Part shown: in pieces, positions 12,736 through 60,809 of the stretch
Position numbering within the stretch: the first letter of the stretch is position 1
How the letters are laid out: each line of letters starts with the position of its first letter
NCBI GenBank assembly: GCA_001723845.1
Contig: MCBE01000217.1
Coordinates: forward strand, 1 to 60,809
Reading direction: 5' to 3'
DNA from: Candidatus Altiarchaeales archaeon WOR_SM1_SCG
GTDB lineage: Archaea > Altiarchaeota > Altiarchaeia > IMC4 > WOR-SM1-SCG
DNA length: 60,809 bases
The notes under the pieces: model-generated
Told to the model about the DNA's origin: nothing
The model's database searches: none
The model's input: the letters and a program-made list of their open reading frames with translations, nothing else
Made by a program: the position numbers and the translations under genes

Positions 12736-13866
12736 ATGGCACTAATTGATATATTAAAGGAACCTTGGAATCTACTTAATAAACATTCGGCGGTAGGTGT
12801 TTTGATTGGGATAGTGGGTGTTTTGGTAGCGATTATCTCGCTTGTCCTATACATATTGAATAGTACACCAATAGATCCAATTTATGCTACAAGCCCATCG
12901 GAACTAATAGCAAAGACAGGTGAGAATGCTCCTCGCATGACTATCCTATGGGATGGTTCAGAAGTTTCAGATGTTAGGTCTGTAAAAGTTGCCTTTTGGA
13001 ATTCGGGGTCTGAATATATAGATGTCAAGAATATTCCAAAAGATAATCCAATTCAATTTGTACCTTCAGAAAAAGTTGAAATACTATCTGTAGAGTTATT
13101 AAAGTCAAGTAGGGAAAATTTGAAATTTAACACTTCAATCAAAGATGACTCAACATTGGGGCGACAAGTAGTTCAAGTTGACATTGTGGGTGATGAGGCG
13201 ATTGAACGACTGGATGGTGGGCTTTTTAAAGTCTTGTATACTGGAAAAGAAGAAAATGTTGAGTTTTCTGTAAATGGACGCATAAAAGGCGCACCTGAGG
13301 GGTTTAAGAAAAAGGATTGGAACGAAATTCAAAGATCTAAATTTATTAATTTTGGCTTTAGTTTTGTTGCGGGTATTTTTGCTATAATTGGTATCTCTTG
13401 GTACATTATTAGCCCACTTAAAAACGAAATAGAAAAGGGGTTGGATTTGTTTAGCTGGGATGATGTCCCTGGAAACGATAGTGAACACATGATAGAATTT
13501 TTAAAATATGATATGAAAATAGAATGGGTGGAAAATGCAGAAATCAAAAAAAGCGATGATGACAAAGTCATAACTGTTACAAATAGAGAGAACTCCATCG
13601 CATTCAACCTTAAAAAAGAAGAAAACAAAGTAACTCTGAAAATCAATGGTGTGAAGAGTCATGAATACATTTTGAAAGAAGATAAAGGTAATCTAAATAT
13701 ATACAATGATTTCTCTCTTAAAAACATTAGAGATGATCAGGACACATTCGGAAGATTATTGATATCTGCCCTAATATTATTATTTTTCATATATTTATCT
13801 GGCTCAAATATTATTGAATACTTTCATTATTTGGACATTCCCACTTGGCTTATTCACTTGGTATAG
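12736..13866 (+). CDS. Membrane protein (3 predicted TM) carrying an inserted YLFSW-type module
   Basis: Three hydrophobic segments; module lies between TM2 and TM3. Confidence 0.75.
   Translation: MALIDILKEPWNLLNKHSAVGVLIGIVGVLVAIISLVLYILNSTPIDPIYATSPSELIAKTGENAPRMTILWDGSEVSDVRSVKVAFWNSGSEYIDVKNIPKDNPIQFVPSEKVEILSVELLKSSRENLKFNTSIKDDSTLGRQVVQVDIVGDEAIERLDGGLFKVLYTGKEENVEFSVNGRIKGAPEGFKKKDWNEIQRSKFINFGFSFVAGIFAIIGISWYIISPLKNEIEKGLDLFSWDDVPGNDSEHMIEFLKYDMKIEWVENAEIKKSDDDKVITVTNRENSIAFNLKKEENKVTLKINGVKSHEYILKEDKGNLNIYNDFSLKNIRDDQDTFGRLLISALILLFFIYLSGSNIIEYFHYLDIPTWLIHLV
13444..13704 (+). mobile_element. In-frame insertion module, copy 1 (87 codons)
   Basis: DLFSWDDVPGND...KGNLNIY; 48/87 identical to 60390-60650 by manual ungapped alignment; ends 10/14 complementary. 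Confidence 0.65.
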
Positions 13867-14024
13867 AGGTTCATACAAATTTATTAACTCATAAGATGGT
13901 GATTTATTCCAGCGACTTCTCAACATCTGGAAACTGATTAGTACTAATTCTGATGAGAAATAAACTTGTAATTTCAATTAAATTCAGATTCTTTATTTTT
14001 GTTTAAAATTAAATATATTAAAAA

Positions 14025-15239
14025 ATGTACGACACATACGCAGACCCCGAGGAACACATAATTGCCGATTATTATGTTGAAAGCACATACCCGTTAATGA
14101 AAATCGGCAGGATGATTGCAGCAGAGGAATCAACCGGCTCATGGGTAATTTCAGAGCGCGAGACAAAGGAATTGATAGAAAAATACGGTGCTAAAGTTGT
14201 GGAAACAAATGAAGAGAAAAGCACTGTAAAAATTGCATACCCGATTATAAATTTAAATCCCGATGACGGTGTTGCACTGCTTCTGTCAACTGCTGCCGGG
14301 AACATTTTCGGGATGTCGGCGATAAAAAATATAAAACTGCTCGATCTAAAATTTCCAGAAAATTATGTAAAGGAATTTAAAGGTCCGAATTTTGGAATTG
14401 ATGGAATAAGAAAACTCGTTGGAACGGAAAAGTCAGGGCGTCCGCATGTCGGGACAATCATAAAGCCGGATGTCGGTCTTGAACCAGAAGAATTTGCAGA
14501 GACCTGCTATGAAGCGGCAACCGGCGGGTGTGATTTCATAAAGGATGATGAACTGCTTGGAAGCCCGGTTTACTGCACGAGAGAGGAAAGGGTCGCAGCA
14601 GTTATGGAAAAACTTGACATTGTAAAAGAGGAAACAGGAAGGAATGTTCTTTACGCCTGCAACATCACGACACGGGTTGATAAAATTCTTGATGCAGCAG
14701 ATATTGTCATGGACAACGGCGGGAACTGCGTGATGCTTAATTTCGTGACAACCGGGTTTTCCGCTCTGCGAGTCCTTTCCGAAAATACAAAACTCCCTGT
14801 ACACTGCCACAGGGACATGCACGCTGCGTTCACAAGAAACCCCAGGCACGGGATTGAGATGATGGTTGTTTCAGAACTTGTGCGTCTGTGCGGCGGCGAC
14901 CAATTACATACGGGAACCGCAGCAGGTAAGATGAGTGCTTCCGAGTACGGCGTCTTGAATTATAATAAATTCCTAACACAGGAATGGTTTCACTTCAAAA
15001 CGGTTTTTCCTGTCGCATCAGGCGGCGTTCACCCGGGAGTTGTTGAAAATAATATTAAAATTCTTGGTAATGATATTGTGCTTCAGGCAGGCGGAGGAAT
15101 CCACGGGCATCCGAGAGGAACAAGAGCAGGAGCTGTTGCGATGAAGCAAGCGGTTGATGCGGCAATGAAAGGGATTAAAATTGAAGAATATGCGAAAAGT
15201 CATGAGGAGTTGAGGTTGTGGGTTGAGAAAATGAAATAA
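14025..15239 (+). CDS. RuBisCO large-subunit family protein (form III-like or RLP)
   Basis: AAEESTG, GN, DFIKDDE, HCHR, LHTGT..GKM, VASGG, QAGGG; KPD in place of KPK. Confidence 0.9.
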   Translation: MYDTYADPEEHIIADYYVESTYPLMKIGRMIAAEESTGSWVISERETKELIEKYGAKVVETNEEKSTVKIAYPIINLNPDDGVALLLSTAAGNIFGMSAIKNIKLLDLKFPENYVKEFKGPNFGIDGIRKLVGTEKSGRPHVGTIIKPDVGLEPEEFAETCYEAATGGCDFIKDDELLGSPVYCTREERVAAVMEKLDIVKEETGRNVLYACNITTRVDKILDAADIVMDNGGNCVMLNFVTTGFSALRVLSENTKLPVHCHRDMHAAFTRNPRHGIEMMVVSELVRLCGGDQLHTGTAAGKMSASEYGVLNYNKFLTQEWFHFKTVFPVASGGVHPGVVENNIKILGNDIVLQAGGGIHGHPRGTRAGAVAMKQAVDAAMKGIKIEEYAKSHEELRLWVEKMK

Positions 15240-15284
15240 AATTTATAATTTAATTCTTAATCATAATTCTTAATATATACTAAA

Positions 15285-16259
15285 ATGGCAATGAACGAAC
15301 AGGAGGTCTATTCAAACGCGGGAAAAATTTATAAAATATTGCGAAATGAAATAGGAAAGGTTATTGTCGGGCAGGATGATGTCATGGAGCAGTTGATGAT
15401 TTCAATTATAACGGGAAGTCACGCGCTTGTTGAGGGTTTCCCCGGGCTTGGTAAGACAATGATTATAAGCACTATTTCAAAGGTAATGGATTTAAAATTT
15501 AAAAGAATTCAATGCACGCCGGACATCATGCCATCTGACATTACAGGGACATATATCGTTGAAGAAAGTGCGGACGGCAAAAAAAATTTCAGGTTTGAAA
15601 AGGGACCGATTTTTGCAAACATTATTCTTGCAGATGAAATAAATCGTGCGACTCCAAAAGCACAGTCCGCGCTTCTTGAGGCAATGCAGGAAAAGCAGGT
15701 TACGGTCGGGAACACAACCTATAAACTTGATATGCCCTTTTTTGTGCTTGCAACCCAGAACCCGATAGAAATGGAAGGTACATACCCGCTGCCTGAGGCG
15801 CAGGTTGACAGGTTCCTCCTTAAAATTTTAATTGATTACCCGACCCCGGCAGAAGAGGAAAAAATTGTTGATTTATACACGGGTGAGGAGAAACATGAGG
15901 TTAAAAAAATCCTTGACCGTGAGCGTCTTCTGGTTTTGCAGGGGCTTACAAGAAAAATGCCTATCGCAAATGATGTTAAAAATTATGCCTTAAAAATTAT
16001 CACCGCAACAAGACCTGCAAACAGCAGCACTGCAAAAAAGTACCTTGAATACGGCGCATCCCCGAGAGCGTCAATAGGAATAATTCTTGCTGCAAAAGCA
16101 AGTGCATTGGTTAACGGCAGGAATTATGTCGGCAAAGAAGACATCAAAAAAATGGCGTATCCTGTCCTGAGGCACAGGATTATATTGAATTTTGAGTCCG
16201 AGAGAAAGGGGGTTTCTGCTGATAAAATAATAAGGGAAATTATTGAAGGGGTGAAGTAA
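15285..16259 (+). CDS. MoxR-family AAA+ ATPase
   Basis: EGFPGLGKT, RIQCTPD, LADEINRA, ATQNPIEMEGTYPLPEAQVDRF. Confidence 0.95.
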   Translation: MAMNEQEVYSNAGKIYKILRNEIGKVIVGQDDVMEQLMISIITGSHALVEGFPGLGKTMIISTISKVMDLKFKRIQCTPDIMPSDITGTYIVEESADGKKNFRFEKGPIFANIILADEINRATPKAQSALLEAMQEKQVTVGNTTYKLDMPFFVLATQNPIEMEGTYPLPEAQVDRFLLKILIDYPTPAEEEKIVDLYTGEEKHEVKKILDRERLLVLQGLTRKMPIANDVKNYALKIITATRPANSSTAKKYLEYGASPRASIGIILAAKASALVNGRNYVGKEDIKKMAYPVLRHRIILNFESERKGVSADKIIREIIEGVK

Positions 16260-16692
16260 TTTTAATGAAATTCTTTTAATTGTTCGTGTATTAAATTTTG
16301 AAATTAAATTTTAATTGAATCAAAATTTAGTGAGTGGTATTAGTTAAAAAGTCCTGTTGCAATCCTGATTATGATGTTTCGGTTGTTTGGCGTTATTTGA
16401 ATTGAATGAAATTAAATGTTCCGTATGTTCCATAAAAAACATAAAAATTTCAAATAACTTTTAAAGATGTAATTTATTTATAATCTGTAACTAAAAAATT
16501 AAAAATTTTAATATCTGCTCGTATATGCTTCACTATCGTTCGCTATATCTCATCGTGTGACTCTGAGATGGCTCGCAGATGAGCAACTCATTAAGGAACG
16601 AAAAGGTCCGTAAAATTTTCCATTAAATTTTGATAAAATTTAAGGATCCTAAAAGGATAGTAAAATTTTGGGCTCCCGGAGGATGTAAGGAT

Positions 16693-16889
16693 ATGTTTGA
16701 CAACCACTTAGATGTGTATGCTACAATAATCTGATACGGATTAATTCAGGATTGACTATAAAAACAAAGAAAGGCGAGAGGAATATTAAAAGGACACCAT
16801 GTATGGCGGAGGGAATCACGAAACATGTATGGTCCTGGAGAGAATTACTAATGTTTAAGATTTTACCAACTATGGATTAGGACACTACC
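16693..16889 (+). mobile_element. IS1-family remnant (transposase C-terminus + right end)
   Basis: ..YNNLIR..RTPCMAEGITKHVWSWRELL..; ends GGACACTACC (reverse complement GGTAGTGTCC, IS1-type IR). Confidence 0.7.
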
Positions 16890-16973
16890 TAATTGCGGGA
16901 CTGAACAATAATCTTAAAAATCAAAATTTTAATTTTAATTCTAAAGTTATTTCCTTCAAATCTAAATTTTAAC

Positions 16974-17246
16974 ATGAATTGGGAACTTCCCGGATTACTC
17001 ACAGGAGCAATAACCGCGTCCGGTTTTTTACCTCAAATATGCATGGGTTACAAAACAAAACATCTAAATGACCTGTCGTAATTCATGTTAATCCTAATTT
17101 CTGTCGGAATGTCGCTCTGGTTTTTATATGGAATCCACCCGAACTCACTCCCGATTATTCTTGCAAATATTGCAGGAATCACATTTACAACAACCCTGAT
17201 TTTAATGAAATTTAAGTATGGTAATTCCAAAAATAAAAAGGCATAA
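16974..17246 (+). pseudogene. SemiSWEET/PQ-loop transporter with in-frame TAA at 17079-17081
   Basis: GFLPQI..KTKHLNDLS*FML..LWFLYG..PIILAN; 91 codons. Confidence 0.8.
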
Positions 17247-17298
17247 TTTAATTTCTAATTAATTGTATTGAAATCTAATTTTTAAAAATTAATGCACG

Positions 17299-18681
17299 AT
17301 GAGAACACACTATTCAAAACAGGTGACGCCTGATTTAGCCGGTGAAAAAGTAACGCTCTGCGGCTGGGCGCATGAATCAAGAGACATGGGAAAAATAAAA
17401 TTTTTAATTTTGCGAGACCGGGAGGGCGTAATACAGGTGCTCGGTAAAAAAGGCGAGACAAAAGAAGAGATGCTTTCAGCAATTGACAGCATTTCAAGGG
17501 AGTCGGTTGTGAAGGTTACGGGAATCGTTAAAGCCAGCAAAATGGCACCGGGAGGTGTTGAAGTCCTGCCGGAGTCAATTGAAGTAATAAGCGAAGCACT
17601 CTCGCCGCTGCCGCTTGATGTTACGGGAAAAGTCCAGGCAGATCTTGACACACGGCTCAACATGCGGTTTATGGACATCCGAAAGCCGGAAATTACCGCG
17701 ATATTCAGGATTAAAGATAAAATTCTAACAGCAGGAAGGGAATATTTTGAAAAACAGGATGATGAATTTATTGAAATTCACAGCCCGAAGATTATTGCAT
17801 CCGCATCCGAGGGAGGCACGGAATTGTTCCCGATCGCCTACTTTGACAAAGAAGCATTCCTTGCACAGTCGCCGCAGTTATACAAGCAGATGATGATGGC
17901 AACCGGATTTGACCGGGTTTATGAGGTCACAAATTATTTCAGGGCGGAAGAACACGACACATTCAGGCACTTGAACGAGGTTACTGCGTTTGATTCGGAG
18001 CAGGCATTCATCAATGATGAAAACGATGTCATGCAAACGGTTGAAGGGCTTGCGAGAGCCATGCTAACATGCGCCGCGGGATGCGAAAATGAGATTGAAA
18101 TTATAAATAATTATTATAAAAGAGCAAAAATTAAAGATAAAAACGGGCAGACAAAGAAACTTGAAATTAACGCCCCAAAAAAGAATTTTAGAAAAATTAC
18201 CTACGACGAAGCACTTGACCTTCTTTCAGCGGAAGGAAAAGAACTCCCGTGGGGCGAAGACCTTGACACTGAAAGCGAGAAAATATTAGGCAGAATAATC
18301 AGGGAAAAATTCAAAGACGATATTTATTTTATAACAAAATACCCTCTAAAAATTAAGCCGTTTTACACGATGCCTGGTAAAGCCCTTGATGACGAATGCG
18401 CCGATGATTCATATTCCCGCGCGTTTGACCTTGAATACAGGGGTGTTGAAGTGGTTTCCGGGAGCCAGAGGATTCATGATTACAATTTATTGAGCAGGCG
18501 ACTTGAGTATCACAACCTGAACCCGGAGAATTTTAAATCATATTTAAATTCATTCAGGTACGGGATGCCTCCGCACGGCGGATTCGGGCTTGGGATTGAC
18601 AGGATTTTAATGCAGATGTTTGAGGTGAATGTCAGGGAGGTTGTGCTGTTCCCGAGAGACAGGCACCGGCTGACGCCTTGA
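17299..18681 (+). CDS. aspS: Aspartyl-tRNA synthetase (archaeal type)
   Basis: FLILRDREG, LAQSPQLYKQ, FRAE, GMPPHGGFGLGIDR, LFPRD. Confidence 0.97.
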   Translation: MRTHYSKQVTPDLAGEKVTLCGWAHESRDMGKIKFLILRDREGVIQVLGKKGETKEEMLSAIDSISRESVVKVTGIVKASKMAPGGVEVLPESIEVISEALSPLPLDVTGKVQADLDTRLNMRFMDIRKPEITAIFRIKDKILTAGREYFEKQDDEFIEIHSPKIIASASEGGTELFPIAYFDKEAFLAQSPQLYKQMMMATGFDRVYEVTNYFRAEEHDTFRHLNEVTAFDSEQAFINDENDVMQTVEGLARAMLTCAAGCENEIEIINNYYKRAKIKDKNGQTKKLEINAPKKNFRKITYDEALDLLSAEGKELPWGEDLDTESEKILGRIIREKFKDDIYFITKYPLKIKPFYTMPGKALDDECADDSYSRAFDLEYRGVEVVSGSQRIHDYNLLSRRLEYHNLNPENFKSYLNSFRYGMPPHGGFGLGIDRILMQMFEVNVREVVLFPRDRHRLTP

Positions 18682-18734
18682 TCATTCACAAAACATTTTT
18701 TAAACTTGTAATTTAATTTTTAATATAGAAATGT

Positions 18735-18932
18735 ATGATGAAAAAATTCTGGGTTCACAAGGCAGATTCATTTAAGGAAGCCGAGGAATTTGACGGGAAA
18801 TATTATTCGGCAATGTCAGGGGAAGAGCGATTAGAGACAATGCAGTTTTTAAGGGAAATATACTATAAAATAAAAGGAGTTGAGAATGAAAGTAGAAAAG
18901 GACTACGAAGAGTTATTAGGGTTGTTCAATAA
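18735..18932 (+). CDS. Small protein paired with nucleotidyltransferase (TA-like)
   Basis: MSGEERLE motif; overlaps next gene. Confidence 0.65.
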   Translation: MMKKFWVHKADSFKEAEEFDGKYYSAMSGEERLETMQFLREIYYKIKGVENESRKGLRRVIRVVQ

Positions 18933-19338
18933 GAATAAGGTGAGGTATTGCATTGTCGGCGCTTATGCCGTGGCTTTTCATGCTGTTCCCAGATATTCAA
19001 AAGATATGGATATTCTAATTGAACCCGATGTAGAAAACGCTAAAAGAATTATTAAAGCACTCAATGAATTCGGGTTTGGAAGTTTAGATTTAACGGAAAA
19101 GGACTTTATTCAGGAAGGCAAAATTATTCAATTAGGTTATGAACCTGTTAGAATTGATATTTTAACATCTATAGAAGGATGCGGCTTTAAAGAGGTCTGG
19201 GAGAACAAAACTTGCGGCATGTATGGAAAACAAAAAGTGTTTTTTGTCGGAATAGATGAGTTGATAAAAAATAAGAAAGTTTCAGGGCGTAAGCAGGATG
19301 AAATAGATCTGGATATTTTATTATCTGGTAAAAAATAA
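18886..19338 (+). CDS. Nucleotidyltransferase-fold protein
   Basis: IVGAYAVAFH..RYSKDMD, NKKVSGRKQDEIDL. Confidence 0.8.
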   Translation: MKVEKDYEELLGLFNKNKVRYCIVGAYAVAFHAVPRYSKDMDILIEPDVENAKRIIKALNEFGFGSLDLTEKDFIQEGKIIQLGYEPVRIDILTSIEGCGFKEVWENKTCGMYGKQKVFFVGIDELIKNKKVSGRKQDEIDLDILLSGKK

Positions 19339-19392
19339 ATAAGATGAAGACATACAGATAAGAGTATGTGTCCAAAACAATTACTGCCATGT

Positions 19393-19446
19393 AATGTCGG
19401 GGAAGTTGTGCTGTTCCCGGGGGATCGGCACCGTCTGACGCCTTAA
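19393..19446 (+). repeat. Displaced copy of aspS 3' end
   Basis: 54 bp matching 18628-18681 through the stop codon. Confidence 0.9.
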
Positions 19447-19501
19447 AAATTTTAAAAGCCGATTAAATCACGCCAAATAATGTGATAACAGAATCAATAA
19501 A

Positions 19502-21229
19502 ATGAACCTATCAAAAATCATAAAAAAATTCGCGGTCCAGAACCGGCTGAAGCACGGCACGGCAAATGAAAAGGCAGTTATTGGAAAGGTTCTTGGCGAG
19601 ATTCCCGAAGCAAGAAAAAACATACCTGAAGTTATGCGGGAAATAGGGGAAGTGGTTTTCCAGGTAAATAACATGCAGGATGCGGAATTAAAAAATTACG
19701 AACTCGTAGAAACCGTGAAAAAAGAAAAATCAGAAATTCAGTTAAAAAATCCAAAGGAAGTTGTCATGCGTTTCGCACCGAACCCTTCGGGACCCCTGCA
19801 TATCGGGCATGCAAGAGCGGCAATCCTTAATAATGAACTCGTGAAAAAATATAAAGGAAAATTAATTCTCCGGGTTGAGGATACCGATCCGAAGAGGGTT
19901 GATGCTGAAGCGTACGGGATGATTGAGGATGACCTGAAACTTCTTGGAGTTGTTTGGCATGATAAGGTTCTTCAAAGCGACAGGATGGAAATTTATTATA
20001 AATTTTGCAGAAAATTAATTGAGCAGGGGAATGCTTATGTCTGCTGCTGCAATGAGGATGAATTTAAAAAATTAAAATTAAAATCACTTCCATGCCCTCA
20101 CAGGAATACATCTCCCGGCAAAAATTTAAAACTCTGCGATGAAATGAAATCATGGGCTGAAGGTCAGGGTTCCGTGAAATTGAAGACGGATTTGAATCAT
20201 AAAAACCCTGCTGTTCGCGACTTTCCGATTATGCGGATTGTTGAGAAAAAACACCCGAAATTGCAGGGCTGTAAAATTTATCCTTTAATGAACTTTTCCG
20301 TTGCCGTGGATGACCACCTGCTTGGAGTGACGCATGTATTAAGAGGGAAAGACCATATCATAAATACCGAGCGGCAGAGATACATTTATAAATATCTCCT
20401 GTGGAAAGAGCCGGAGTTCATTCACTACGGCTTGATGAAGGTTAAAGAGGTTTTAAGTACCAGCGAAATGCGAAAAGGAATTGAAGCCGGGAAATTTCGC
20501 GGCTGGGATGATCCCGCGTTGTGGACAATCAAAGCACTTATAAAAAAGGGCATCAGGGCTGATGCAATTAAAAATTATATTATAAATCTTGGAATGAAGG
20601 AAAAGGATATTGAATTCTCGCCTGAAAATTTGTATGCGGAAAATAAAAAGATTGTTGAGCCGACCGCTGACCGCTACTATTTTGTCCCGGAGCCAATTGA
20701 ACTTATCGTTGAGAATGTTCCTAAATTGAAGTTGAAAATACCTCTTCACAAGGATTTCCGGGAGCGCGGCAAGAGAGAATTTAATTTTAAATTTCGCGAA
20801 AGTTACGGGAATTTAAATTTTTACATTTCAAAAGAAGATGCCAGGGGATTAAAGGTCGGCGATTGCATAAGGTTGATGAATTTTATCGGGGTTAGGATTA
20901 CGGAAGTAACGGTTGAAAATAATGAAAATAAAAAATTAATTTCGGGATATATCAGAAATTCCGCGGGACCCATGGTTGAATTTGTTAATGAGGAAAAGGA
21001 CACGACAGAGGAGAGAGAACATATCGCCGGTGCAAAAAAAATCCAGTGGGTTTATGCCGACGGTGCGGTTGGGGCTGAAATCCGGACGGCGGGTAAAACC
21101 CTGGAGGGAGTGTGCGAGTCGGCATGCGGTAAATTGAGGGTTGATGATGTCATCCAGTTTGAGAGGATTGGGTTCTGCCGGCTTGATGAAATTAATGAAA
21201 AATTAATTTTCTGCTTCGGGCATAGGTAG
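19502..21229 (+). CDS. gltX: Glutamyl-tRNA synthetase (archaeal)
   Basis: RFAPNPSGPLHIGH, RVEDTDP, THVLRGKDH, LSTS, QFERIGF. Confidence 0.97.
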   Translation: MNLSKIIKKFAVQNRLKHGTANEKAVIGKVLGEIPEARKNIPEVMREIGEVVFQVNNMQDAELKNYELVETVKKEKSEIQLKNPKEVVMRFAPNPSGPLHIGHARAAILNNELVKKYKGKLILRVEDTDPKRVDAEAYGMIEDDLKLLGVVWHDKVLQSDRMEIYYKFCRKLIEQGNAYVCCCNEDEFKKLKLKSLPCPHRNTSPGKNLKLCDEMKSWAEGQGSVKLKTDLNHKNPAVRDFPIMRIVEKKHPKLQGCKIYPLMNFSVAVDDHLLGVTHVLRGKDHIINTERQRYIYKYLLWKEPEFIHYGLMKVKEVLSTSEMRKGIEAGKFRGWDDPALWTIKALIKKGIRADAIKNYIINLGMKEKDIEFSPENLYAENKKIVEPTADRYYFVPEPIELIVENVPKLKLKIPLHKDFRERGKREFNFKFRESYGNLNFYISKEDARGLKVGDCIRLMNFIGVRITEVTVENNENKKLISGYIRNSAGPMVEFVNEEKDTTEEREHIAGAKKIQWVYADGAVGAEIRTAGKTLEGVCESACGKLRVDDVIQFERIGFCRLDEINEKLIFCFGHR

Positions 21230-41105: not shown

Positions 41106-42038
41106 ATGTACAATGAAGATGAAAAACCTATAACAAAGGATTTTAAGATAGGTGAGGAAACTTACGGTCTTGTTTTGACTTTGAGCAACGATTATTCTTA
41201 CATTGAAAGAGATTTTGATAAGTTAAAAAATAAAATTGAAAAATATGGGGGTGCAAAGATTATATGGGTGAACTCTCTTTTTGGCATACAAGACTCGGTA
41301 ATTCTTCTACGCGCAACAGGAGATATGGACAAAGCAGTACATGTTTTTGATGAATGGGTCGTTACCAATTATAAAAACGCTAAAACCCCTGCAATTCCTT
41401 TACCATTTAAACATCTTAGTTATACTGCGGAAAAAGATATGTTAGAAGATGTGTTTAATGCGATAGAATCGCCTAAAAGCGTTGCAAAGTTTGGTCAAAA
41501 AGATCCTAAATTAGGATATGTAAATATTATGGGGGAGTGGGGAAGAATGACAAAGAGATATTTATTTAGCTTGAATGAGCTATCTGGAGAAAACAAAAAT
41601 CAGTTTCTAAAATTCATTGAGAAAGAGTTAGACATACCTGTAGCGAAAAATCCAAAAATCATTAAATCTGATAACAAGGAAATAATTATAAGGGATGATA
41701 AAAACTGGATTAACCTTAAACTTGATATCAACACAGATGAGAAAAAGATAAATATAACAGTCTCTGGCGGAAAAACTTATGAATACGTTTTAGAAAAAGA
41801 AAGTGGCAAGCTAAACATATATACAAAAGGTGAAATAAGGAAAAAATTTGAAGTTTTTGAGTACTGGGTAGATCCACTAATTCCTATTTTTGTTAATGAA
41901 CCGATATTAAAAGAAAATAATTCTCCTTTTGTAATAATCTATTTGAGATTTGATAAAAGAAAGGGATACTCTTTAAAAGATACGTATTCTGCGTTTAACA
42001 CTCATGAAAATCTAAAATCTATGGACTTTTGGAAATGA
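41106..42038 (+). CDS. Hypothetical protein carrying an inserted YLFSW-type module
   Basis: Open frame; LFGIQDSVILL resembles an Lrp/AsnC-like fold segment. Confidence 0.65.
   Translation: MYNEDEKPITKDFKIGEETYGLVLTLSNDYSYIERDFDKLKNKIEKYGGAKIIWVNSLFGIQDSVILLRATGDMDKAVHVFDEWVVTNYKNAKTPAIPLPFKHLSYTAEKDMLEDVFNAIESPKSVAKFGQKDPKLGYVNIMGEWGRMTKRYLFSLNELSGENKNQFLKFIEKELDIPVAKNPKIIKSDNKEIIIRDDKNWINLKLDINTDEKKINITVSGGKTYEYVLEKESGKLNIYTKGEIRKKFEVFEYWVDPLIPIFVNEPILKENNSPFVIIYLRFDKRKGYSLKDTYSAFNTHENLKSMDFWK
41559..41822 (+). mobile_element. In-frame insertion module, copy 2 (88 codons)
   Basis: YLFSLNELSGEN...VSGGKTYEYVLEKESGKLNIY; ends 14/16 complementary. Confidence 0.65.
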
Positions 42039-52150: not shown

Positions 52151-52331
52151 CTTTAGTTTTGATTTAATTTTTTAATTATTTTCCAATTCATCTATCGCAA
52201 AAATTACTACTTCTTCCCAGCAATCAAGCCCCCATTCCACTCCTTTTTTAACCCTGTCTAATTCTTCGGCGGTTAATTCCCTGTTTAATTTTTATATGCC
52301 TTTTCAAGTATCCTGCTATAATCTTTTTTAG

Positions 52332-53366: not shown

Positions 53367-53434
53367 ATTCTATTCTTATTATTTGAATTAATTAAAATTT
53401 GAGGATTTATTTTTTACTTTAATCTTTCACTTTT

Positions 53435-53818
53435 TCACCTCTCCCTCTTCTCAATAACCCTCGCCCTTCCTCCGAATTCAACATAAGTAACATCATCGCC
53501 TTCATTGACTTCATTTAAAAGTTCTGGCGTGATGTCCGCATCAAGCATTTCATAATTATCCATTGACATTACCTGAACTTCATTACCCGTCTTTGCAATC
53601 AGCTGCCCGTGCCTTTTTATTATTTCAATATCTTCAACCCTCTCATGAGACGACATTGTTAATGACTCTTTTTTTCCTGAAAATAAACCCGCCATTTCAA
53701 CCTTTGTTTTTGTATGGCTGTGCGTTCCGACAACAACCAGACCTATTTTTTTAATCCTGTACGGCTCGCCCTTGTGTGCTATGTAACTTCCTCTTGACAG
53801 TTTTTTAATTTCAATCAT
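53435..53818 (-). CDS. aIF5A-like protein lacking the hypusine lysine
   Basis: GEPYRI, GLFSGKK, IIKRHGQL, QVMSMDNYE; loop reads VGTHSHTK. Confidence 0.8.
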   Translation of the reverse strand: MIEIKKLSRGSYIAHKGEPYRIKKIGLVVVGTHSHTKTKVEMAGLFSGKKESLTMSSHERVEDIEIIKRHGQLIAKTGNEVQVMSMDNYEMLDADITPELLNEVNEGDDVTYVEFGGRARVIEKRER

Positions 53819-53873
53819 TTTTTAATTTTTTTTCAGTTAAATACAAAGAAATAGTTTTTTAATCAAATTCAAT

Positions 53874-54809
53874 TCAATTTTCCATGAGTTCGGGCTTAAC
53901 ACCCTTTGCCAGGTCATCGTACATTCTTCTTATTGTTGCCTCAGGAATTCCTGCAAAAGCGATAATGTCTGACGGCGCATTCTCATCCCCGGTTAATTCA
54001 CCGGCAATGTGAAGTGCTGCCATTGCAGCCCCGACAGGTGCTTTTCCTGATGTGATTCCCTTATCTCTTGCAATTTCAAGTACTTCTTTTGCTTTATTCT
54101 GGGTGTTGCCTGAAATCTTTAACTCGCTTGCAAGCCGCTCAACATAATCCATCGCGGTAATTACAGGCATTCTTAAGCCGAGTCCTCTATAGACCGTCCT
54201 GTAACTCCTGCCTATATCTTTCTTTTTTATGCCCGATGCTTCTTCAAGTTCCTCAAGTGTTTTCGGCAGGCGGTGCTGTCTTGAAACAAGATAAATTATT
54301 GCCGCGACAACCGACTCAATACTTCTCCCGCGAACAACGCCTTTACTTACGGCTTTTCTGTATGTCTGGGCACATTCCTCTTTAATGTTATTCGGGATAT
54401 TCAGGTGCGCACACATCCTGTCAAGTTCCGGCAGTGCCATTGATAAATTCCTGTGCACTGAATCGGACATCCTTGTTCTTTTCTGCCATTTCCTGAGACG
54501 ATATATCTGGGCTTTGCTTTCCGGCGGAATTGCACCGCCCCTGATGTCGCGATCGTAGCGGTCAATTTCAGTTGTCAGACCTTTATTGAGTTTTGCAAAT
54601 TTTAGAGGACCTCCCGCCCTTGCACGCTTTGCTTCCTGCTCATCGTCAAATGCCCTCCACTCCGGACCGTGGTCAAACATTTTTTCTTCCATAACAAGAC
54701 CGCACCCGGCACAGATTCTCTCACCGTGTTTGTAATCGGTTATTATCTCTGTTCCGTTGCATTCAGAACACATCTCCTTTCCGTTATTTTCATTTAACGC
54801 TTCATTCAT
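53874..54809 (-). CDS. tfb: Transcription initiation factor TFB
   Basis: CSEC..ICAGCGLV, GPEWRAF, RLRKWQ, RGRSIE. Confidence 0.95.
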   Translation of the reverse strand: MNEALNENNGKEMCSECNGTEIITDYKHGERICAGCGLVMEEKMFDHGPEWRAFDDEQEAKRARAGGPLKFAKLNKGLTTEIDRYDRDIRGGAIPPESKAQIYRLRKWQKRTRMSDSVHRNLSMALPELDRMCAHLNIPNNIKEECAQTYRKAVSKGVVRGRSIESVVAAIIYLVSRQHRLPKTLEELEEASGIKKKDIGRSYRTVYRGLGLRMPVITAMDYVERLASELKISGNTQNKAKEVLEIARDKGITSGKAPVGAAMAALHIAGELTGDENAPSDIIAFAGIPEATIRRMYDDLAKGVKPELMEN

Positions 54810-54925
54810 TTTTTACCTGTGTTTTTTATCTATATCTTTAATATTTTTCTGCTTAATAGTAATTATTTAATTATTTACTTTTCAGGTTTAAATACCTGCA
54901 CAAAATTTTTTTATAATTTTATAAA

Positions 54926-55702
54926 TTATTGAAACAAACACGATGCAATATACTTATGATATTTCCGGGAAATATTTTTTATATTAATTTCCATTCCCCT
55001 GTCCTTTGCTATCAATAAAATCATTACGGCGTCCGTGCAAACAGGTAAATCGCCTGTTTTCGGGAGGGACCTGCAAAATGATGATAAAATTTTGTTGATT
55101 CCCTTAAAAAATTTTTCCTTGTTATTTTCCGAAAGCCCGGCTAATACATCTTTTGTACCTTTGTAATACCCTGAAACATTACCCTTTTGCTTTTTTTCGG
55201 ACTCGGAAAGTTTTTTTACCTGTTGAATTAGATGTTTATGCTTGTATTTACCTGAATTTTTACTGCAAATTATAAACAGGGATAATGCAAGAACATAGTT
55301 GTATATTAAATCCGAACCGAAAGCTTCCGGTCTGTTTTCAATGATATAATCAGTTATTTTATTTATTGATTTTTTATTTATTGACAGGACACAACTTTTA
55401 ATTACCTGGAGTGCGGCGGTTTCGGTAAATGTTTTATTGATCCCGAAGTATTGTTTTGTTTGAAGATGCAAATCAGCGCACCTTAAATAAAACCCGGAGG
55501 ACTTATTAAACCAGGACACTGCATTCTTTTTGTCATTTAACACCAGATAACCTAATGAAACAGCGTACGCACTTGTGCCAAAGCCCCACAACCACCTGGA
55601 CTTTAATTTTTTATCATGGGTTTTTATTTTTTCACTGTTTTCGTCAATAAATTTTTTATGAAAATTTATAAAATTTATAATTTCTTCTCCTGTTTTTAAC
55701 AT
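54926..55702 (-). CDS. Helical hypothetical protein (immunity-protein-like)
   Basis: Open frame; loose resemblance to Imm49-type proteins only. Confidence 0.6.
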   Translation of the reverse strand: MLKTGEEIINFINFHKKFIDENSEKIKTHDKKLKSRWLWGFGTSAYAVSLGYLVLNDKKNAVSWFNKSSGFYLRCADLHLQTKQYFGINKTFTETAALQVIKSCVLSINKKSINKITDYIIENRPEAFGSDLIYNYVLALSLFIICSKNSGKYKHKHLIQQVKKLSESEKKQKGNVSGYYKGTKDVLAGLSENNKEKFFKGINKILSSFCRSLPKTGDLPVCTDAVMILLIAKDRGMEINIKNISRKYHKYIASCLFQ

Positions 55703-55770
55703 TTTTAACCTGCCGCTCTTAACATATTAAAATTTACATTTTGAAATTTAATTAACTAATTAATTAGAAA

Positions 55771-56403
55771 ATGTCAAAACAAAAAATAAAACTTGTTGCA
55801 TTTGACCTTGACGGCGTTTTGGTTGATTCAAAAGGCAGCTGGAGGGAAGTGCATGAAGCATTGGGTACTGTTAAGCAGGCTGAGCCGCATGAACGGCTTT
55901 TCTATGAAGGTAAAATAAGTTTTGATGATTGGGCGGAACTTGACACGAAATTATGGGCGGGAACAGACATTGAGAAAATAAAGGAAATTTTATATGAAAT
56001 TCGCCCGATGCGTGGCATAACTTACACACTCAATAAATTAAGGAAAAATTATAAACTTGCAATTATTTCCGGGGGCTTGCAGATACTTGCGGATAAAATT
56101 AAAAATGATTATGGAATGCATCATGCGGTCGGCAACGAAATATTGACAAACGGCGGGAAGGTTTGCGGGATAAAGCAGGTTGTTGGGTTCAAAGACAAAA
56201 GTGAATTTTTAAGAAAATTTGCAAAAGAAGAAGGGATAACAACCGATGCGTGTGCCGCCGTCGGCGATTATATCAATGACATCCCGATGTTCAAAGAAGC
56301 GGGCTTAAGTATCGCTTTCAACCCGAAACACGCGGATGTTGTTGACCATGTTGACGAAATCGTTTATGAAAAAAATTTAATTAAAATTCTTGAGTTTTTA
56401 TGA
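55771..56403 (+). CDS. HAD hydrolase, phosphoserine phosphatase-like
   Basis: FDLDGVL, ISGG, VGDYIND, IAFNP. Confidence 0.88.
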   Translation: MSKQKIKLVAFDLDGVLVDSKGSWREVHEALGTVKQAEPHERLFYEGKISFDDWAELDTKLWAGTDIEKIKEILYEIRPMRGITYTLNKLRKNYKLAIISGGLQILADKIKNDYGMHHAVGNEILTNGGKVCGIKQVVGFKDKSEFLRKFAKEEGITTDACAAVGDYINDIPMFKEAGLSIAFNPKHADVVDHVDEIVYEKNLIKILEFL

Positions 56404-56433
56404 GGCAGGAGAAATTGTTGAAAAAATTTTAAA

Positions 56434-57321
56434 TCACCGAAACAGAATTTTCTCAACCTCTTCTAACTTTTCAAGCCCTTTTATTTCATAAGAAAAAGAC
56501 GGGATTTTCGTGACCTCTATATCAATTTTATCTTTTATTTCATCAATTCTTTTTATGTTCCCCTCTTGCATTAACATTCTCTGCCTGTGAAATTCGCAGC
56601 ACGCCTCATGTATTACATTATTTATTACAATATAATTTATATTCATATTATTTTCATGCAATTCAAAAACAAGCCGTTCTGTCTGCATTGTACTTAATGT
56701 CTCGGGAATTGTCACCGCGACAATCTCTGTTTCATTTTTCAAAAATTCCACGATTTCTTCTGCAAGTTTCTTCCAGGAATCAATTATATCAAAAATTGAC
56801 CTTTTGCCCCATTTGATGTTAAATTTCATATAGACCTTTACTGCCTGGTTCAGGTGGTCAATGAACCGGGACGGCAGGTTTAAAAGCCGGAGCGTGTGTC
56901 CCATCGGCGCGCTGTCCCAGATGATTCTTTCGTATTTTTTCCGCATCACGAGTTCATGAATGTAATATAACATAAATTCCTCGTCAATCCCGGGAGCGGT
57001 TCCGATATAATCAACTATTGATTTCTCTGTATCAACAAACGAGGAAATCACTTCATAGATTTCATCGCCGAATTTTTGTTTCCAGAGACGAAGAACTTCC
57101 CCGGAACTCAATTCAAGAGCATATAAATTTTCAGCTAATTTTTTCTCCTTATCCCCGATTTTCGTTTCAAATATGTCTGAAAGAGACGGGGCAGGGTCTG
57201 TGGAAATAACAAGTGTTTTTTCACCCTGCAGTGCAAAATGAACAGCGGTTGCGCATGATACGGTCGTTTTCCCGACACCGCCCTTTCCTGCGAACATGAC
57301 GACTTTTTTATTGATTTTCAT
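56434..57321 (-). CDS. ArsA/GET3-family ATPase
   Basis: GKGGVGKTT, STDPA, PGIDE, DSAPMGHTLRLL. Confidence 0.92.
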   Translation of the reverse strand: MKINKKVVMFAGKGGVGKTTVSCATAVHFALQGEKTLVISTDPAPSLSDIFETKIGDKEKKLAENLYALELSSGEVLRLWKQKFGDEIYEVISSFVDTEKSIVDYIGTAPGIDEEFMLYYIHELVMRKKYERIIWDSAPMGHTLRLLNLPSRFIDHLNQAVKVYMKFNIKWGKRSIFDIIDSWKKLAEEIVEFLKNETEIVAVTIPETLSTMQTERLVFELHENNMNINYIVINNVIHEACCEFHRQRMLMQEGNIKRIDEIKDKIDIEVTKIPSFSYEIKGLEKLEEVEKILFR

Positions 57322-57347
57322 GGTTATTTGAAAAATATTCTAAATAT

Positions 57348-57493
57348 TATTTAAATTTAGAATTCAGAGTAAATTATTAATCCACTGCTCCTCTCTCCTT
57401 TAAAAATTTAATCTGAATTCTATTTAAATTTAGAATTCAGAGTAAATTATTAATCCACTGCTCCTCTCTCCTTTAAAAATTTAATCTGAATTC
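57348..57493. repeat. Perfect 73-bp tandem duplication
   Basis: 57348-57420 = 57421-57493. Confidence 0.95.
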
Positions 57494-57626
57494 CACTTAA
57501 ACCTTTCGCACCTTTTATTTTCATTCCCCTGCATTTTAGTTTCTGCTTTATTCTTCTTATGTAGTCTCCACTATCAAAATCCCATATTTTTATCACACCA
57601 CCCTTACTTCCAGATACAAGGGTAAT
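57450..57626 (-). pseudogene. C-terminal remnant of a WD40 (NACHT-WD40-type) protein
   Basis: LVSGSKGGVIKIWD...GMKIKGAKGLS..FLKERGA. Confidence 0.65.
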
Positions 57627-57629
57627 TTG

Positions 57630-58148
57630 CGGCTTAAAGTTTCGGATCATGCCGATTCAAACAGTATTTGTGCGTTCCTTTTATGCATCATGGCAAACTT
57701 ATCTGATTTATTTACGGTACTCACAGATGATTTCACAGCATATCGTTTTTTAGATAAAACATGGATACCACACGAGACGGTAAATCATAGTAAAAAAGAA
57801 TATATGTAAAATTTTAATAAAATTTTGATATTTCCTCGCATGCTCGGAAATGCAAGAGGTGAAGTGCATAATAATACAATTGAAGGTTACTGGTCTGTCT
57901 TCAGGCACTGGGTGGACACATACGGGGGAGTATCCAAAAAATATCTTGCCGAGTATGTACTCTTTTTTGAGTTTGTGGAAAACAACAAAAAGGCGGGCTG
58001 GATTCCGATGTTTCATAAAATAATTTTTTTGCCCTGGGTAAGAATTGGGTCAACAAGCAATTATGTGCTTCATAATATGCTAAAAAACATAAAATCACAA
58101 TTAATAAACAGTAATCAAATGCTCATAGCAACGGTTTCGTTCACATGA
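57630..58148 (+). mobile_element. IS1595-family transposase remnant interrupted by a 48-bp insertion
   Basis: TDDFTAY..HETVNHSKKEY / ARGEVHNNTIEGYWS..GVSKKYLAEY. Confidence 0.85.
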
Positions 58149-58334
58149 GCGTTTATTTTAATTATTTAAGTAGTTTGAAGCATGGTGCGCGGCTAAGTCG
58201 GCTAAGTTATGCCGTGTCCTGCAAACGGTTGGAATACCTGCCCGCATAACATGCAGATTGCCTCTTATGATTATTCCAGGGGGTTGCAATGATTAAATAT
58301 GATTTAATTCTAATTTTATTATTAATAATTGAAA

Positions 58335-59588
58335 ATGAAAGGAACACTTGTTGAAAAAATATTTGGTAAGAAAACCGGCAAGAATGTATCTGCAGGGGAC
58401 TTAATCGTATCGGATATTGATTTTATCATGGGTCAGGACGGAACAACACCTCTTGCAATTTCCGCTTTTAAAAAGATGGGTGATAAGGTTAAATGCCCGG
58501 ACAGAATTGCTCTTGTAATTGACCACAGCGCACCTTCCCCGAATGAAGGCGTATCAAAACTTCATAAGATGATGTATGATTTTGGCAGGGAGCAGGGGAT
58601 TGAAAATTTTTATGATATCGGCGACGGCGTGTGCCACCAGGTAATGGCTGAAAATCATGTATCTCCCGGTGATGTTGTTGTCGGCTCTGACTCGCATACC
58701 TGCACTTACGGGGCATTGGGCGCGTTTTCAACGGGTATCGGAAGCACGGATGCTGCGGCGGTCTATAAAACACAGAAATTATGGTTCCGGGTTCCTGAGA
58801 CCTACAAATTCAATATTTCGGGCGACCTTCAAAAAGGGGTCTATTCAAAGGACATGATTTTGCATATCATTAAGGAAATGACCTCTGATGGTGCAACATA
58901 TAAGTCATGCGAGTTTCACGGGGATGCAATTAAAAAGATGAGTGTTGATGCAAGAATGACTATCACGAACATGGCAGTTGAGATGGGCGCAAAAAACGGG
59001 GTAATTGAGCCGGATCCTGCTATCGCCACATACATAAACAAGCACAGGAGAGGCAAGACATCGGATATGAATTTCAGGCACCTCAAAAGTGACGGCGAGT
59101 ATGAAGAAGAATTTGTGTTTGAAATTAATGAACTTGAACCGCAGATTGCATGCCCCCATACCGTTGATAATGTATGCGGCGTGTCCGAAATCCAGGGGCA
59201 TGAAATTGACCAGGCATTTATCGGGACATGCACAAACGGCAGGCTTGAGGACTTGAAAATTGCAGCGGAAATCCTGCGGGGCAATAAAGTTAAATCGCGG
59301 CTTATAATTGCTCCCGCCTCGCGGAGAATTTTCATGGAAGCAATAAATGAAGGAATTATTCAAATATTTATGAAATCCGGCGCCTGTGTCGTGAACCCTG
59401 GATGCGCATGCTGCGTCGGAACACACCAGGGCGTACCCTCGGATAATGAAATTATAATTTCGTCCGCGAACAGGAATTTCAAGGGGAGGATGGGCAACTC
59501 GTCAGCCGAGATTTACCTTGCGAGTCCCGCAACGGTTGCCGCAAGCGCGGTTGAAGGTAAAATTACAGACCCGAGAGATATTTTATAG
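58335..59588 (+). CDS. leuC: 3-isopropylmalate dehydratase/homoaconitase large subunit
   Basis: DH, GVCHQV, GSDSHTCTYG, IGTCTNGR, CACCVG, NRNFKGRMG, ASPATVAAS. Confidence 0.9.
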   Translation: MKGTLVEKIFGKKTGKNVSAGDLIVSDIDFIMGQDGTTPLAISAFKKMGDKVKCPDRIALVIDHSAPSPNEGVSKLHKMMYDFGREQGIENFYDIGDGVCHQVMAENHVSPGDVVVGSDSHTCTYGALGAFSTGIGSTDAAAVYKTQKLWFRVPETYKFNISGDLQKGVYSKDMILHIIKEMTSDGATYKSCEFHGDAIKKMSVDARMTITNMAVEMGAKNGVIEPDPAIATYINKHRRGKTSDMNFRHLKSDGEYEEEFVFEINELEPQIACPHTVDNVCGVSEIQGHEIDQAFIGTCTNGRLEDLKIAAEILRGNKVKSRLIIAPASRRIFMEAINEGIIQIFMKSGACVVNPGCACCVGTHQGVPSDNEIIISSANRNFKGRMGNSSAEIYLASPATVAASAVEGKITDPRDIL

Positions 59589-59789
59589 TATTTATACTTG
59601 AGTTTCAAAGATATTAGATTTCTAACATAATAAATTTTATTTACCCCATTTACTGATGTTGGTTTTTGTTATCTCACTTTTTGTATTTTGTTGCCATGTC
59701 AAAATTTTAAATAAAATCAGTGTGCTTTAATACTTTAACTAACAAATGTTGCCATGTCATTTAATTTATTTAATATCTAATACAATAAC

Positions 59790-60809
59790 ATGGAACTAAC
59801 AACTAAAGAAATAATGGCAATAAAACCCTACATTGAAATCATTAGAAAAAAAGGTAGAATGCCTCAATATACTCTTGTAAGAAAAAAACGGGTAAATGGA
59901 GAAGTAAAAAGAGTGTGGAGTAAGTATCTGGGCACAGCAGAAACGATCGAGAAATTCTATAAAAACTGTGAAGAATGCACTGATATGAAACTCAAAAGTT
60001 TTGAGTATGGAAGAACGGCAGCACTAATGAAAATAGCAGAAGAACTAAATTTTGTTGAGATCGTAAATAAACACACAACCAAAAAGAAGATTGAAGGGCT
60101 GACAGTTGGTGAATACATGCTATTGATTATCCTTAGCAGAGCCGATGAACCAATAAGCAAAAACGGAATCTCCGACTGGTTTGACGATTCTTTTCTCGAT
60201 TTAATGTGGGTATTTTCGCACAAACTGAACACTCAAAATTTTACGAACCACATGGATTATCTCACAGATGAAGTAATGCGAAAAATCGGGGATGACCTGG
60301 GAAAAAGACTTGTTGAGCTTGGTGTGGCACCAACAAAGTTATATATTGATATGAGCAATGTCTTCACATATATGGAAAATGGGGGAACGTATTTGTTTAG
60401 CTGGAATAATATTCCCGGAAACGACAGCAAGCGACTCATAAACCATCTTTTGGATAATCTAAAAATAGGTTGGGTAAAAAACGCAACAATCAATAAAAAC
60501 AATGACTGTAAAATAATAACAGTTACGGAAGGGGAAAACTCAGTTGAACTAAAACTTAACGAGAAAGAAAACAAAGTAGTCTTAAAAATCAGTGGCGGTA
60601 AAACCTATGAATATATCTTAAAAGAGAAGAAGGGTAAGCTAAAGGTATACGGCGGGGAGATGCCTAAAAAAGGTAGGGGTAAAGAGAAACGATATGATAA
60701 AAATATAATCGGCATAGGAATAGTAACAAGTGATGAAAACATCCCAATGCTTCACGAGTCATATCCCGGAAACAAGCACGATTCACAAATATTTGCCGGG
60801 ATTTTTATG
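59790..60809 (+). mobile_element. IS1634-family transposase (3'-partial, runs off window; absent from the ORF track)
   Basis: Manual translation: KYLGTAE..EYG..GLTVGEY..SKNGISDWF..IDMSNVFTY [insert] KKGRGKEKRYD..IGIVT..IPMLHESYPGNKHD. Confidence 0.88.
60390..60650 (+). mobile_element. In-frame insertion module, copy 3 (87 codons), inside the transposase
   Basis: YLFSWNNIPGNDS...ISGGKTYEYILKEKKGKLKVY; ends 11/14 complementary. Confidence 0.75.

Follow-up and report, generated by a model that had tools for sequence, protein, structure and literature searches.

A probable MITE-like element carried in frame as an extra protein domain in an altiarchaeal genome

Three copies of one module in the window

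The window analysed here is a 60,809-nucleotide stretch of the genome of Candidatus Altiarchaeales archaeon WOR_SM1_SCG (contig MCBE01000217.1 of assembly GCA_001723845.1), and our subject is a segment of 87 or 88 codons, hereafter the module, that lies in frame within three genes of this stretch. A first-pass annotation made from the sequence had proposed that the module is a mobile element that encodes a protein domain. The three copies, their host genes and the flanking duplications are as follows.

12736-13866, plus strand: host 1, a 376-aa predicted membrane protein that carries the module between its last hydrophobic segments
13443-13704, plus strand: module copy 1, a 262-bp element consisting of one base (G) and 87 codons, within the membrane-protein open reading frame (ORF)
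13435-13442, plus strand (left, AAGGGGTT) and 13705-13712 (right, AATGATTT): target-site duplication of copy 1
41106-42038, plus strand: host 2, a 310-aa hypothetical protein
41558-41822, plus strand: module copy 2, a 265-bp element consisting of one base and 88 codons, within the 310-aa hypothetical protein
59790-60809, plus strand: host 3, a transposase gene of the IS1634 family that runs beyond the window end and belongs to a multi-copy insertion sequence (IS)
60389-60650, plus strand: module copy 3, a 262-bp element within the IS1634 transposase gene
60381-60388, plus strand (left, GGGGGAAC) and 60651-60658 (right, GGCGGGGA): target-site duplication of copy 3

The modules translate without stops into 87, 88 and 87 residues, each in frame within its ORF, and have the sharp peptide edges (Y/D)LFS...L(N/K)(I/V)Y in common; translations and ORFs thus confirm the description in the first-pass annotation. 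The 48 of 87 identical residues that it had counted between copies 1 and 3 (55% identity) were recovered by alignment, the identity of copy 2 to copy 1 is 31%, and the three copies share 21 invariant columns. Likeness of this degree with common edges far exceeds chance. Copy 1 matches the module profile at E 1.5e-39. At the DNA level, copies 1 and 3 begin with GGATTTGTTTAGCT and GTATTTGTTTAGCT, respectively, and the ends of copy 2 are ATATTTATTTAGCT and, as the reverse complement, ATATATGTTTAGCT. The 8-mers flanking copy 1 agree at 5/8 positions, and this duplication is therefore a decayed target-site duplication. Those flanking copy 2 (ACAAAGAG and ACAAAAGG) agree at 6/8, and those of copy 3 at 4/8 in DNA, where the site reads GG(T)...GG(E) at the protein level. 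Host 3 matches the IS1634 family of NCBIfam (NF033559, E 2.4e-20), and no family was found for hosts 1 and 2 in Pfam or NCBIfam.

Copies and hosts across the genome

The window corresponds to contig C217 of a 2.55-Mb assembly (G000) with 300 contigs, a G+C content of 37% and a completeness of 74%. When the six-frame ORFs of this genome were searched with a profile of the three copies, the same unit was recovered with identical edges. A profile built from all full-length copies matches 33 places, with E-values down to 1e-39, all of them in frame. The corresponding DNA profile (nhmmer) gives exactly those 33 places and no others, so that the protein and DNA searches proposed in the first-pass annotation lead to the same set of in-frame copies. 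Seventeen of them are distinct full-length DNA copies, which are distributed over 15 host ORFs.

The hosts that could be identified with Pfam include three N6_Mtase/Eco57I-type enzymes, in two of which the module lies inside the Eco57I domain match (module at residues 453-539 of a domain spanning 390-633, and at 284-370 of a domain spanning 229-479). Further hosts are an HD-CE protein, a pentapeptide-repeat protein, a Toastrack protein and a 5439-aa surface protein that carries CarboxypepD_reg, CARDB and Ig-like domains. The 87-aa unit itself has no significant family in Pfam-A (2025 copy; the best match, DUF5439 at E 0.007, is far below its cut-off), no match in NCBIfam 20.0 and no match among PDB sequences at E<=5, which agrees with the earlier statement that it could not be assigned to a named family. 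The single ORF of the module likewise matches no transposase family in Pfam or NCBIfam, and the element encodes no transposase, as had been noted before.

One carrier, P0274 (a host on contig C134), has the precomputed Pfam label PF27257. This label probably marks another part of the protein than the module, because other listed carriers with two modules do not have it.

The insertion sequence to which host 3 belongs is present repeatedly in the assembly. The junction region at 60301-60740 is 100% identical in 10 contigs, and 59601-60386 is identical in 8 contigs. Truncated forms exist in four more contigs, two of which are cut by an IS66-type insertion, and one further contig shares only an assembly-overlap end. 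These counts are lower bounds, as identical repeats collapse in assemblies. No module-free IS1634 junction was found in the assembly. Therefore, the IS1634 insertion sequence multiplied after it had gained the module, which suggests that the module-bearing transposase may be functional.

Inverted repeats at the ends of the element

When the DNA of the copies was aligned together with their flanks, the element proved to be a unit of 262 bp, which comprises the base preceding the first Tyr codon and everything from there up to and including the final Tyr codon. The left end is (R)TATTTGTTTAGCT, with the consensus RTATTTGTTTAGCT; the right end, taken as its reverse complement, reads GTATATGTTTAGCT. 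The consensus ends agree at 13/14 positions, and the likeness stops abruptly after position 14. Within individual copies the two ends agree at 9.2/14 positions on average, compared with 4.7 (standard deviation 1.7) in 3653 internal control windows. The YLFS and KLNIY edges of the peptide are thus the translated ends of an inverted repeat.

Codon usage was examined in a set of 48 copies, 17 from the window's genome and 31 from other genomes. At the left end, Leu2 is encoded by TTG in 29/39 cases, compared with 10% in the module interior, and Ser4 by AGC in 27/31, compared with 22%. At the right end, AAG encodes the penultimate Lys in 29/35 cases (interior 21%), CTA the Leu in 19/36 (16%) and ATA the Ile in 29/35 (36%). 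The end codons are thus fixed to the repeat, and the interior synonymous sites of the copies are near saturation (pS 0.61); judged from these codon choices, the ends are evidently conserved as DNA, beyond the peptide that they encode.

Target-site duplication and reading frame

In the 17 copies of the window's genome, the 8-bp flanks agree at 86/136 positions. Flanks taken at 783 control offsets gave a mean of 41.4 (standard deviation 5.5, maximum 59), and none of 5000 partner shuffles reached 86. Three of these copies have perfect 8-bp duplications (GAAAACTT, AAAAATGA and AAAGAGAA). The 31 copies from other genomes agree at 124/248 flank positions; one of them, on a Ca. Altarchaeum contig, is perfect (GCAAAAAA) and four agree at 7/8. 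The 48 copies together comprise four at 8/8, four at 7/8, nine at 6/8, four at 5/8 and 27 at 4/8 or less. Among the 17 copies that score at least 6/8, each of the eight positions matches 12-16 times and the ninth only 3 times. Therefore, the duplication is 8 bp long, with the base before the first Tyr codon belonging to the element. The same ninth-position test rules out a TA or a 9-bp duplication.

The arithmetic of such an insertion is simple. The element and the duplication add 262 + 8 = 270 bp, or 90 codons, and the downstream frame of the host is therefore always preserved. Coding lengths are multiples of three in all 48 copies (261 nt in 25 of them). The frame in which the module is read (+0) is the sole open one of six, the other five containing on average 9, 12.8, 4.1, 1.5 and 7.6 stops.

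Empty sites and nested copies

The first-pass annotation had proposed a search for homologues of the hosts with empty sites, and such homologues were found for the IS1634 transposase and for host 1. The closest homologues of the transposase (P0155-P0158) are 75-80% identical over the alignment, 556-576 aa long and module-free; IS1634 homologues overall are 554-577 aa long. At the empty site they read ENGG-(K/E)(L/M)PKK once, and the window's transposase reads ENGG-T-(87 residues)-GG-EMPKK, that is, it has exactly 90 extra residues with GG on both sides. The insert lies 11 residues past the conserved D of the LYIDM motif, which we take to be the first catalytic Asp. For host 1, seven homologues of 233-271 aa with 29-40% identity lack the 87-aa block, one of them named from a Marinomonas bacterium. 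For host 2, no homologue was found beyond the protein itself and a TPR protein with nothing but the module in common, and the evidence for insertion in this host consists of the 6/8 flank match only.

The module has also entered copies of itself. Among the best 150 of the 2056 representative proteins that match the module (see below), there are 21 cases, in 20 proteins, in which a full copy (profile positions 1-87) stands between the complementary N and C parts of another copy, a pattern that cannot arise by tandem duplication. The outer copies are broken at profile positions 24, 27, 28, 31, 32, 33 (twice), 35, 39 (three times), 41, 45, 46, 48 (twice), 49, 57, 58 (twice) and 59, and none of the 21 break points lies before position 24 or after position 59. 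One nested case is the 5439-aa protein of the window's genome. Three-residue duplications in the outer copy were seen by eye, unscored, as NSK|NSK, FCV|FCV, GEK|GET, VGK|VEK, DSN|DND, EET|EEA and EKK|ENN.

A nested locus in genus g27, which belongs to another order of the phylum, is less clear, as the flanks of the inner copy agree at 2/8 positions (counted by hand). In one species, this locus (L072, G033:C60:54750-55600) has three tandem N parts of 30 residues, two of them identical, which suggests recent slippage or recombination between module parts. Duplication of sub-parts may contribute at this locus, and we base the case for nesting on the 21 examples above.

Candidate partner insertion sequence

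The window's genome carries an insertion sequence with GTGTTTGTTTAGCT at either end, of which only the first 989 bp and the last 126 bp are assembled. The assembled N-terminal 241 aa of its ORF open with a coiled-coil region (read from the sequence by eye) and match zf-IS66 at E 2e-5, below the Pfam cut-off. Homologues of these 241 aa are present in 11 of 61 genomes of the phylum. This IS is inserted into the module inside IS1634 copies and is flanked by AACCATCT, which occurs once in the intact module. Three layers of mobile DNA, an IS66-type IS within the module within the IS1634 gene, can be seen at C53:126-186, C172:989 and C189:796 of the assembly.

One of these homologues, a complete IS of 1650 bp (L054), has GTATTTGTTTAGCT at both ends, exactly the left end of copy 3 of the window, and its 452-aa ORF matches DDE_Tnp_IS66 (PF03050) at E 1.2e-28. 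A 1414-bp relative with related ends (L057) is flanked by the perfect 8-bp duplication GATTTATG; perfect 8-bp duplications were found in 2 of the 3 IS copies examined (L057 and the IS within the module). In addition, the window's genome contains at C66:24368-24562 a 195-bp element with the same 14-bp ends, the perfect duplication CAAAATGA and no long ORF. It is present a single time in the assembly and resembles an ordinary, non-coding MITE (short for miniature inverted-repeat transposable element) of the same IS family.

The ISBst12-group element ISDge4, as far as it is described in the portion of its source on which we draw, has a 449-aa transposase, 14-nt ends starting with GTG/GTA and an 8-bp direct repeat (PMC12898284). 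The candidate partner resembles this group in its single ORF of ~450 aa with DDE_Tnp_IS66, its 14-nt ends starting with GTA/GTG and its 8-bp repeats. The module differs from the group in that it encodes no transposase and has no protein similarity to one; only the ends are common. Judging from ends and duplications, an IS66-family (ISBst12-like) insertion sequence is the likely mobiliser of the module in trans.

Another IS66-family element, on contig C179, was rejected as the partner, as its ends (GTATCCTCTC...) differ. This element, which makes up the whole 1304-bp contig, is multi-copy, has a DDE_Tnp_IS66 domain and ends in GTATCCTCTCAAAAT...; it breaks many contigs, and elements of its type lie at the ends of C258, C265, C257, C97, C22, C73 and C255.

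Selection on the module

The 17 copies have a median pairwise identity of 46% in amino acids and 64% in DNA. Of the 136 copy pairs, dS could be computed for 124; their median dN/dS ratio is 0.32, and no value reaches 1 (maximum 0.70). Only F3, G10, K36 and I43 are invariant in the 17 copies. An orthologous host pair from two g27 species, which carries two modules at the same sites, allows the module to be compared with its own host: the modules give a dN/dS of 0.26 (178 codons, dS 0.45), the remainder of the protein one of 0.17 (426 codons, dS 0.35). Therefore, the segment is constrained as protein after insertion, slightly less than its host.

Distribution among archaea and carrier proteins

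A search of 1.84 billion representative proteins with the 17-copy profile yielded 2056 matching proteins at E<=1e-3, of which 1466 reach E<=1e-10 and 127 reach E<=1e-30. The listed carriers span 99 to 5438 aa, with up to 12 matched stretches per protein. In the phylum of the window's genome, the module was found in 8 of 61 species genomes (searches at class and phylum level covered the same 61). These are the window's genome itself, with 33 matches, all four g27 genomes, with 12-18 each, and 3 of the 22 genomes of family f4, with one match each in open frames of 1785, 2289 and 9496 aa. Named carriers in another collection (16 loci) include an ANME-1 archaeon and several metagenome-assembled genomes (MAGs), namely two of Ca. 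Altarchaeum, nine of Methanoperedens/Methanoperedenaceae, one of Methanosarcinales and one of Methanobacteriota.

In four marine-sediment/seawater metagenome runs, 25-43 contigs per run have a match to host 1 that is confined to the module; they part from the window at 13445/13446 into unlike flanks. No contig that joins across an empty site was found among these four DNA metagenome runs, whose uncovered parts carry no evidence.

Carriers were scanned against Pfam for the 100 proteins of at most 760 aa among the best 150 representatives. These contain 39 families, including pentapeptide repeats, RAMPs, Cmr3, DevR, Baseplate_J, SIR2_2, HNH, KaiC, replication factor C and primase large subunit. 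Additional carriers are RadC and a PRPP synthetase of an Altiarchaeales MAG (P0286). The first-pass annotation had regarded all three hosts as accessory or mobile genes. This is too narrow as a description of the carriers, since the module is borne elsewhere by replication factor C, primase large subunit and PRPP synthetase.

Directly upstream of host 1, at 12013-12665, lie two small overlapping ORFs (119 and 104 aa). Read from their translations only, they resemble what is presumably a HEPN and nucleotidyltransferase pair.

What the element is

The module is short, has no transposase of its own, is bounded by inverted repeats, generates a duplication of fixed length, occupies many unrelated sites and has the same ends as an insertion sequence, and thus has all of the sequence features by which MITEs are recognized. 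We conclude, with a probability of roughly 0.85, that it is a MITE-like non-autonomous DNA transposon with an ORF over its full length, which is carried as an extra protein domain. This agrees with the non-autonomous, in-frame mobile element that the first-pass annotation had proposed; the inverted repeats, the 8-bp duplications, the nesting, the empty sites and the IS with identical ends all speak for it. That annotation had also named three findings that would tell against its proposal, namely a known Pfam domain, a lack of empty sites and freely varying boundaries; what we found was no Pfam family, empty sites in two hosts and constant boundaries.

Such an element may have spread as follows. 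Insertion would duplicate 8 bp of the target and add 270 bp, leaving the host frame intact. One insertion in six (one orientation and one phase) would be read in the sole stop-free frame, giving 87 residues and approximately three duplicated ones. Readable insertions would persist in host proteins able to tolerate them, and insertions in any of the five remaining configurations would bring stops and probably be lost. The inserted segment would then be translated within its host and kept by purifying selection, most likely because it must stay a compact and harmless fold. Both expression and folding of the segment are here presumed from its sequence. The enzyme that moves the element would be a single-ORF IS66-family (ISBst12-group) transposase acting in trans, as the same ends and the 8-bp duplications suggest.

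Several observations weigh against this interpretation. Neither the protein profile nor the nhmmer DNA profile detected any intergenic, antisense or out-of-frame copy in the window's genome; this is unusual for a MITE and requires that copies not under selection were lost or have decayed. Between the left and right ends of individual copies there is no co-variation beyond the consensus, as 458 matches were observed against 450.9 expected and 1275 of 10000 shuffles reach 458. Eighteen of the 48 copies have flank matches of 3/8 or less, which fits old insertions without proving them. Copies in different hosts reach at most 81% identity in DNA. There is therefore no sign of very recent jumps, and we infer movement from the traces that it left. 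As regards the partner, the flanks of L054 agree at 4/8 only, and a homologue of the candidate transposase was found in none of the four g27 genomes with the N-terminal query; these genomes are 65-87% complete and contain 12-18 module matches each.

Among the alternatives, the one that fares best also regards the module as a MITE but holds that the segment is kept for a specific function, such as a binding or adaptor domain in defence or conflict systems, beyond being harmless filler. The dN/dS of 0.26 in orthologous insertions is near the 0.17 of the host, many proteins are multi-copy, with up to 12 matched stretches, and many carriers are defence or mobile proteins (Eco57I-type methylases, RAMPs, Cmr3, DevR, SIR2_2, HNH, AbiEii-like AAA_21, baseplate proteins and a transposase). 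However, replication factor C, primase large subunit, PRPP synthetase, and pentapeptide and surface proteins are among the carriers as well; the carriers have no common neighbourhood or partner, the four invariant residues include no catalytic-looking polar ones, and the insertion of copies into copies suits tolerance better. We therefore regard a specific function as unlikely.

Much less probable is an ordinary promiscuous domain that was spread by gene fusion, duplication and recombination, with palindromic ends as a by-product of conserved terminal residues. That the module is always in frame and under purifying selection, that its copies have the median amino-acid identity (46%) of an old domain family and that intergenic copies were not found in the window's genome would all be expected of such a domain. 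It would not explain why the choice among synonymous codons at the ends is tied to the inverted-repeat sequence, why 8-bp duplications flank the copies (four of them perfect), why full copies interrupt other copies at many positions, why an IS and a non-coding MITE have the same ends, or why exactly 90 residues are missing from close IS1634 homologues.

A self-removing insert, either an intein-like splicing element or an RNA intron, that is absent from the mature host protein would suit the sharp in-frame boundaries and the positions inside conserved host domains (the IS1634 catalytic region and the Eco57I domain), but it can practically be dismissed, because both the Cys/Ser/Thr nucleophile pair and the His-Asn are missing (the module starts with Y, D, H, P or C and ends with Y, and the residue that follows it varies among N, T, G, E, K, H, I, M, L and D, in line with the lack of intein signatures stated in the first-pass annotation), the unrelated host flanks leave no conserved exon-intron helix, and an intron would need neither an open frame nor selection at the amino-acid level. 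A bulge-helix-bulge intron was dropped for the same reason of unrelated flanks.

Comparison with known elements

In-frame selfish DNA within genes, a rare route by which such DNA remodels proteins, has so far been represented by essentially one textbook case, the Rickettsia palindromic elements (RPEs), reportedly described by Ogata et al. in 2000 and 2002. We know of no clear target duplications or partner transposase for RPEs. The module is 262 bp long, palindromic only in its 14-bp ends, flanked by 8-bp duplications and provided with a candidate IS partner; its 87-residue unit is under purifying selection, nests in itself and occurs in several archaeal lineages. In the sections of a 2024 review that treat them, RPEs are the outstanding case of in-frame MITE-like insertion, and their mechanism of spread and contribution to protein evolution are said to remain unexplored (PMC10969869). 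As described there, RPEs resemble the module in being short selfish repeats that lie in frame within unrelated genes and add a conserved peptide apparently compatible with the fold and function of the host, and differ in being ~150 bp long, bacterial (Rickettsia) and palindromic elements (PMC10969869). We claim no sequence similarity between the two, which are set apart here by the descriptions of RPEs rather than by compared sequences.

The prokaryotic MITEs covered in those sections (ERIC, BOX, QMITE1 and the Anabaena MITEs with small ORFs) are, like the module, non-autonomous and multi-copy, with inverted repeats, duplications and the ends of full-length IS elements (PMC10969869). Ordinary MITEs are described as mostly intergenic and non-coding, with occasional in-frame fusions (PMC10969869), whereas all 33 matches of the module in the window's genome are in one coding frame within ORFs, and length plus duplication is a multiple of three. 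Inteins and bacterial intein-like domains are also in-frame selfish inserts at conserved sites of host proteins; the module differs from them in having no splicing residues and no homing endonuclease, and in showing the marks of transposition (terminal inverted repeats and target-site duplications) instead of those of homing. Full-text literature searches, with subscription journals and supplements outside their coverage, found no earlier description of this element.

A second module family

The window's genome contains a second in-frame family with the same end sequence, which is 68-69 aa long, has the edges YLFxL...L(N/K/D)(I/V)Y and comprises 14 copies in 12 ORFs. The following are among these copies.

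C241: 5727-5933
C300: 18242-18445 and 17051-17254
C245: 35944-36168
C33: 31949-32143
C109: 18884-19087

One copy shares an Eco57I-type protein with an 87-aa copy, and another splits a beta-propeller-like repeat protein. The size of this family again gives a multiple of three (204 nt + 1 + 8 = 213), and several copies have flank matches of 6-7/8 (by eye). The family has no Pfam match, is present in 18 of 61 genomes of the phylum and can be aligned with the 87-aa family over the last 21 columns only (hhalign probability 33%).

On balance, we lean towards the view that long-lived families of 'coding MITEs', moved by ISBst12/IS66-type enzymes, are common to anaerobic archaea from two or more lineages of phylum rank. 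Their cargo would be a self-contained plug-in domain with a length of 3n+1, which together with the 8-bp duplication becomes 3n. There would be at least two families with the same ends (87 aa; and 68 aa, 205 + 8 = 213 bp), and they would insert into defence genes, core replication proteins, apparently active transposases and each other.

Conclusions

In this study, we described an archaeal counterpart of the Rickettsia elements, with readable transposition anatomy (ends, duplication length, partner IS, nesting and empty sites) and 2056 representative carriers. The element accounts for a large domain family that lacks annotation and would otherwise end up as a domain of unknown function, and it serves as a warning for annotation, as parts of many archaeal 'multi-domain' proteins are transposon sequence. 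A natural insert that is tolerated in catalytic domains is also relevant to protein engineering. For the evolution of these archaea and their proteins, the element offers a concrete and testable mechanism for the origin of domain insertions. If the wider view given above is true, coding MITEs would be a dedicated natural engine of domain insertion.

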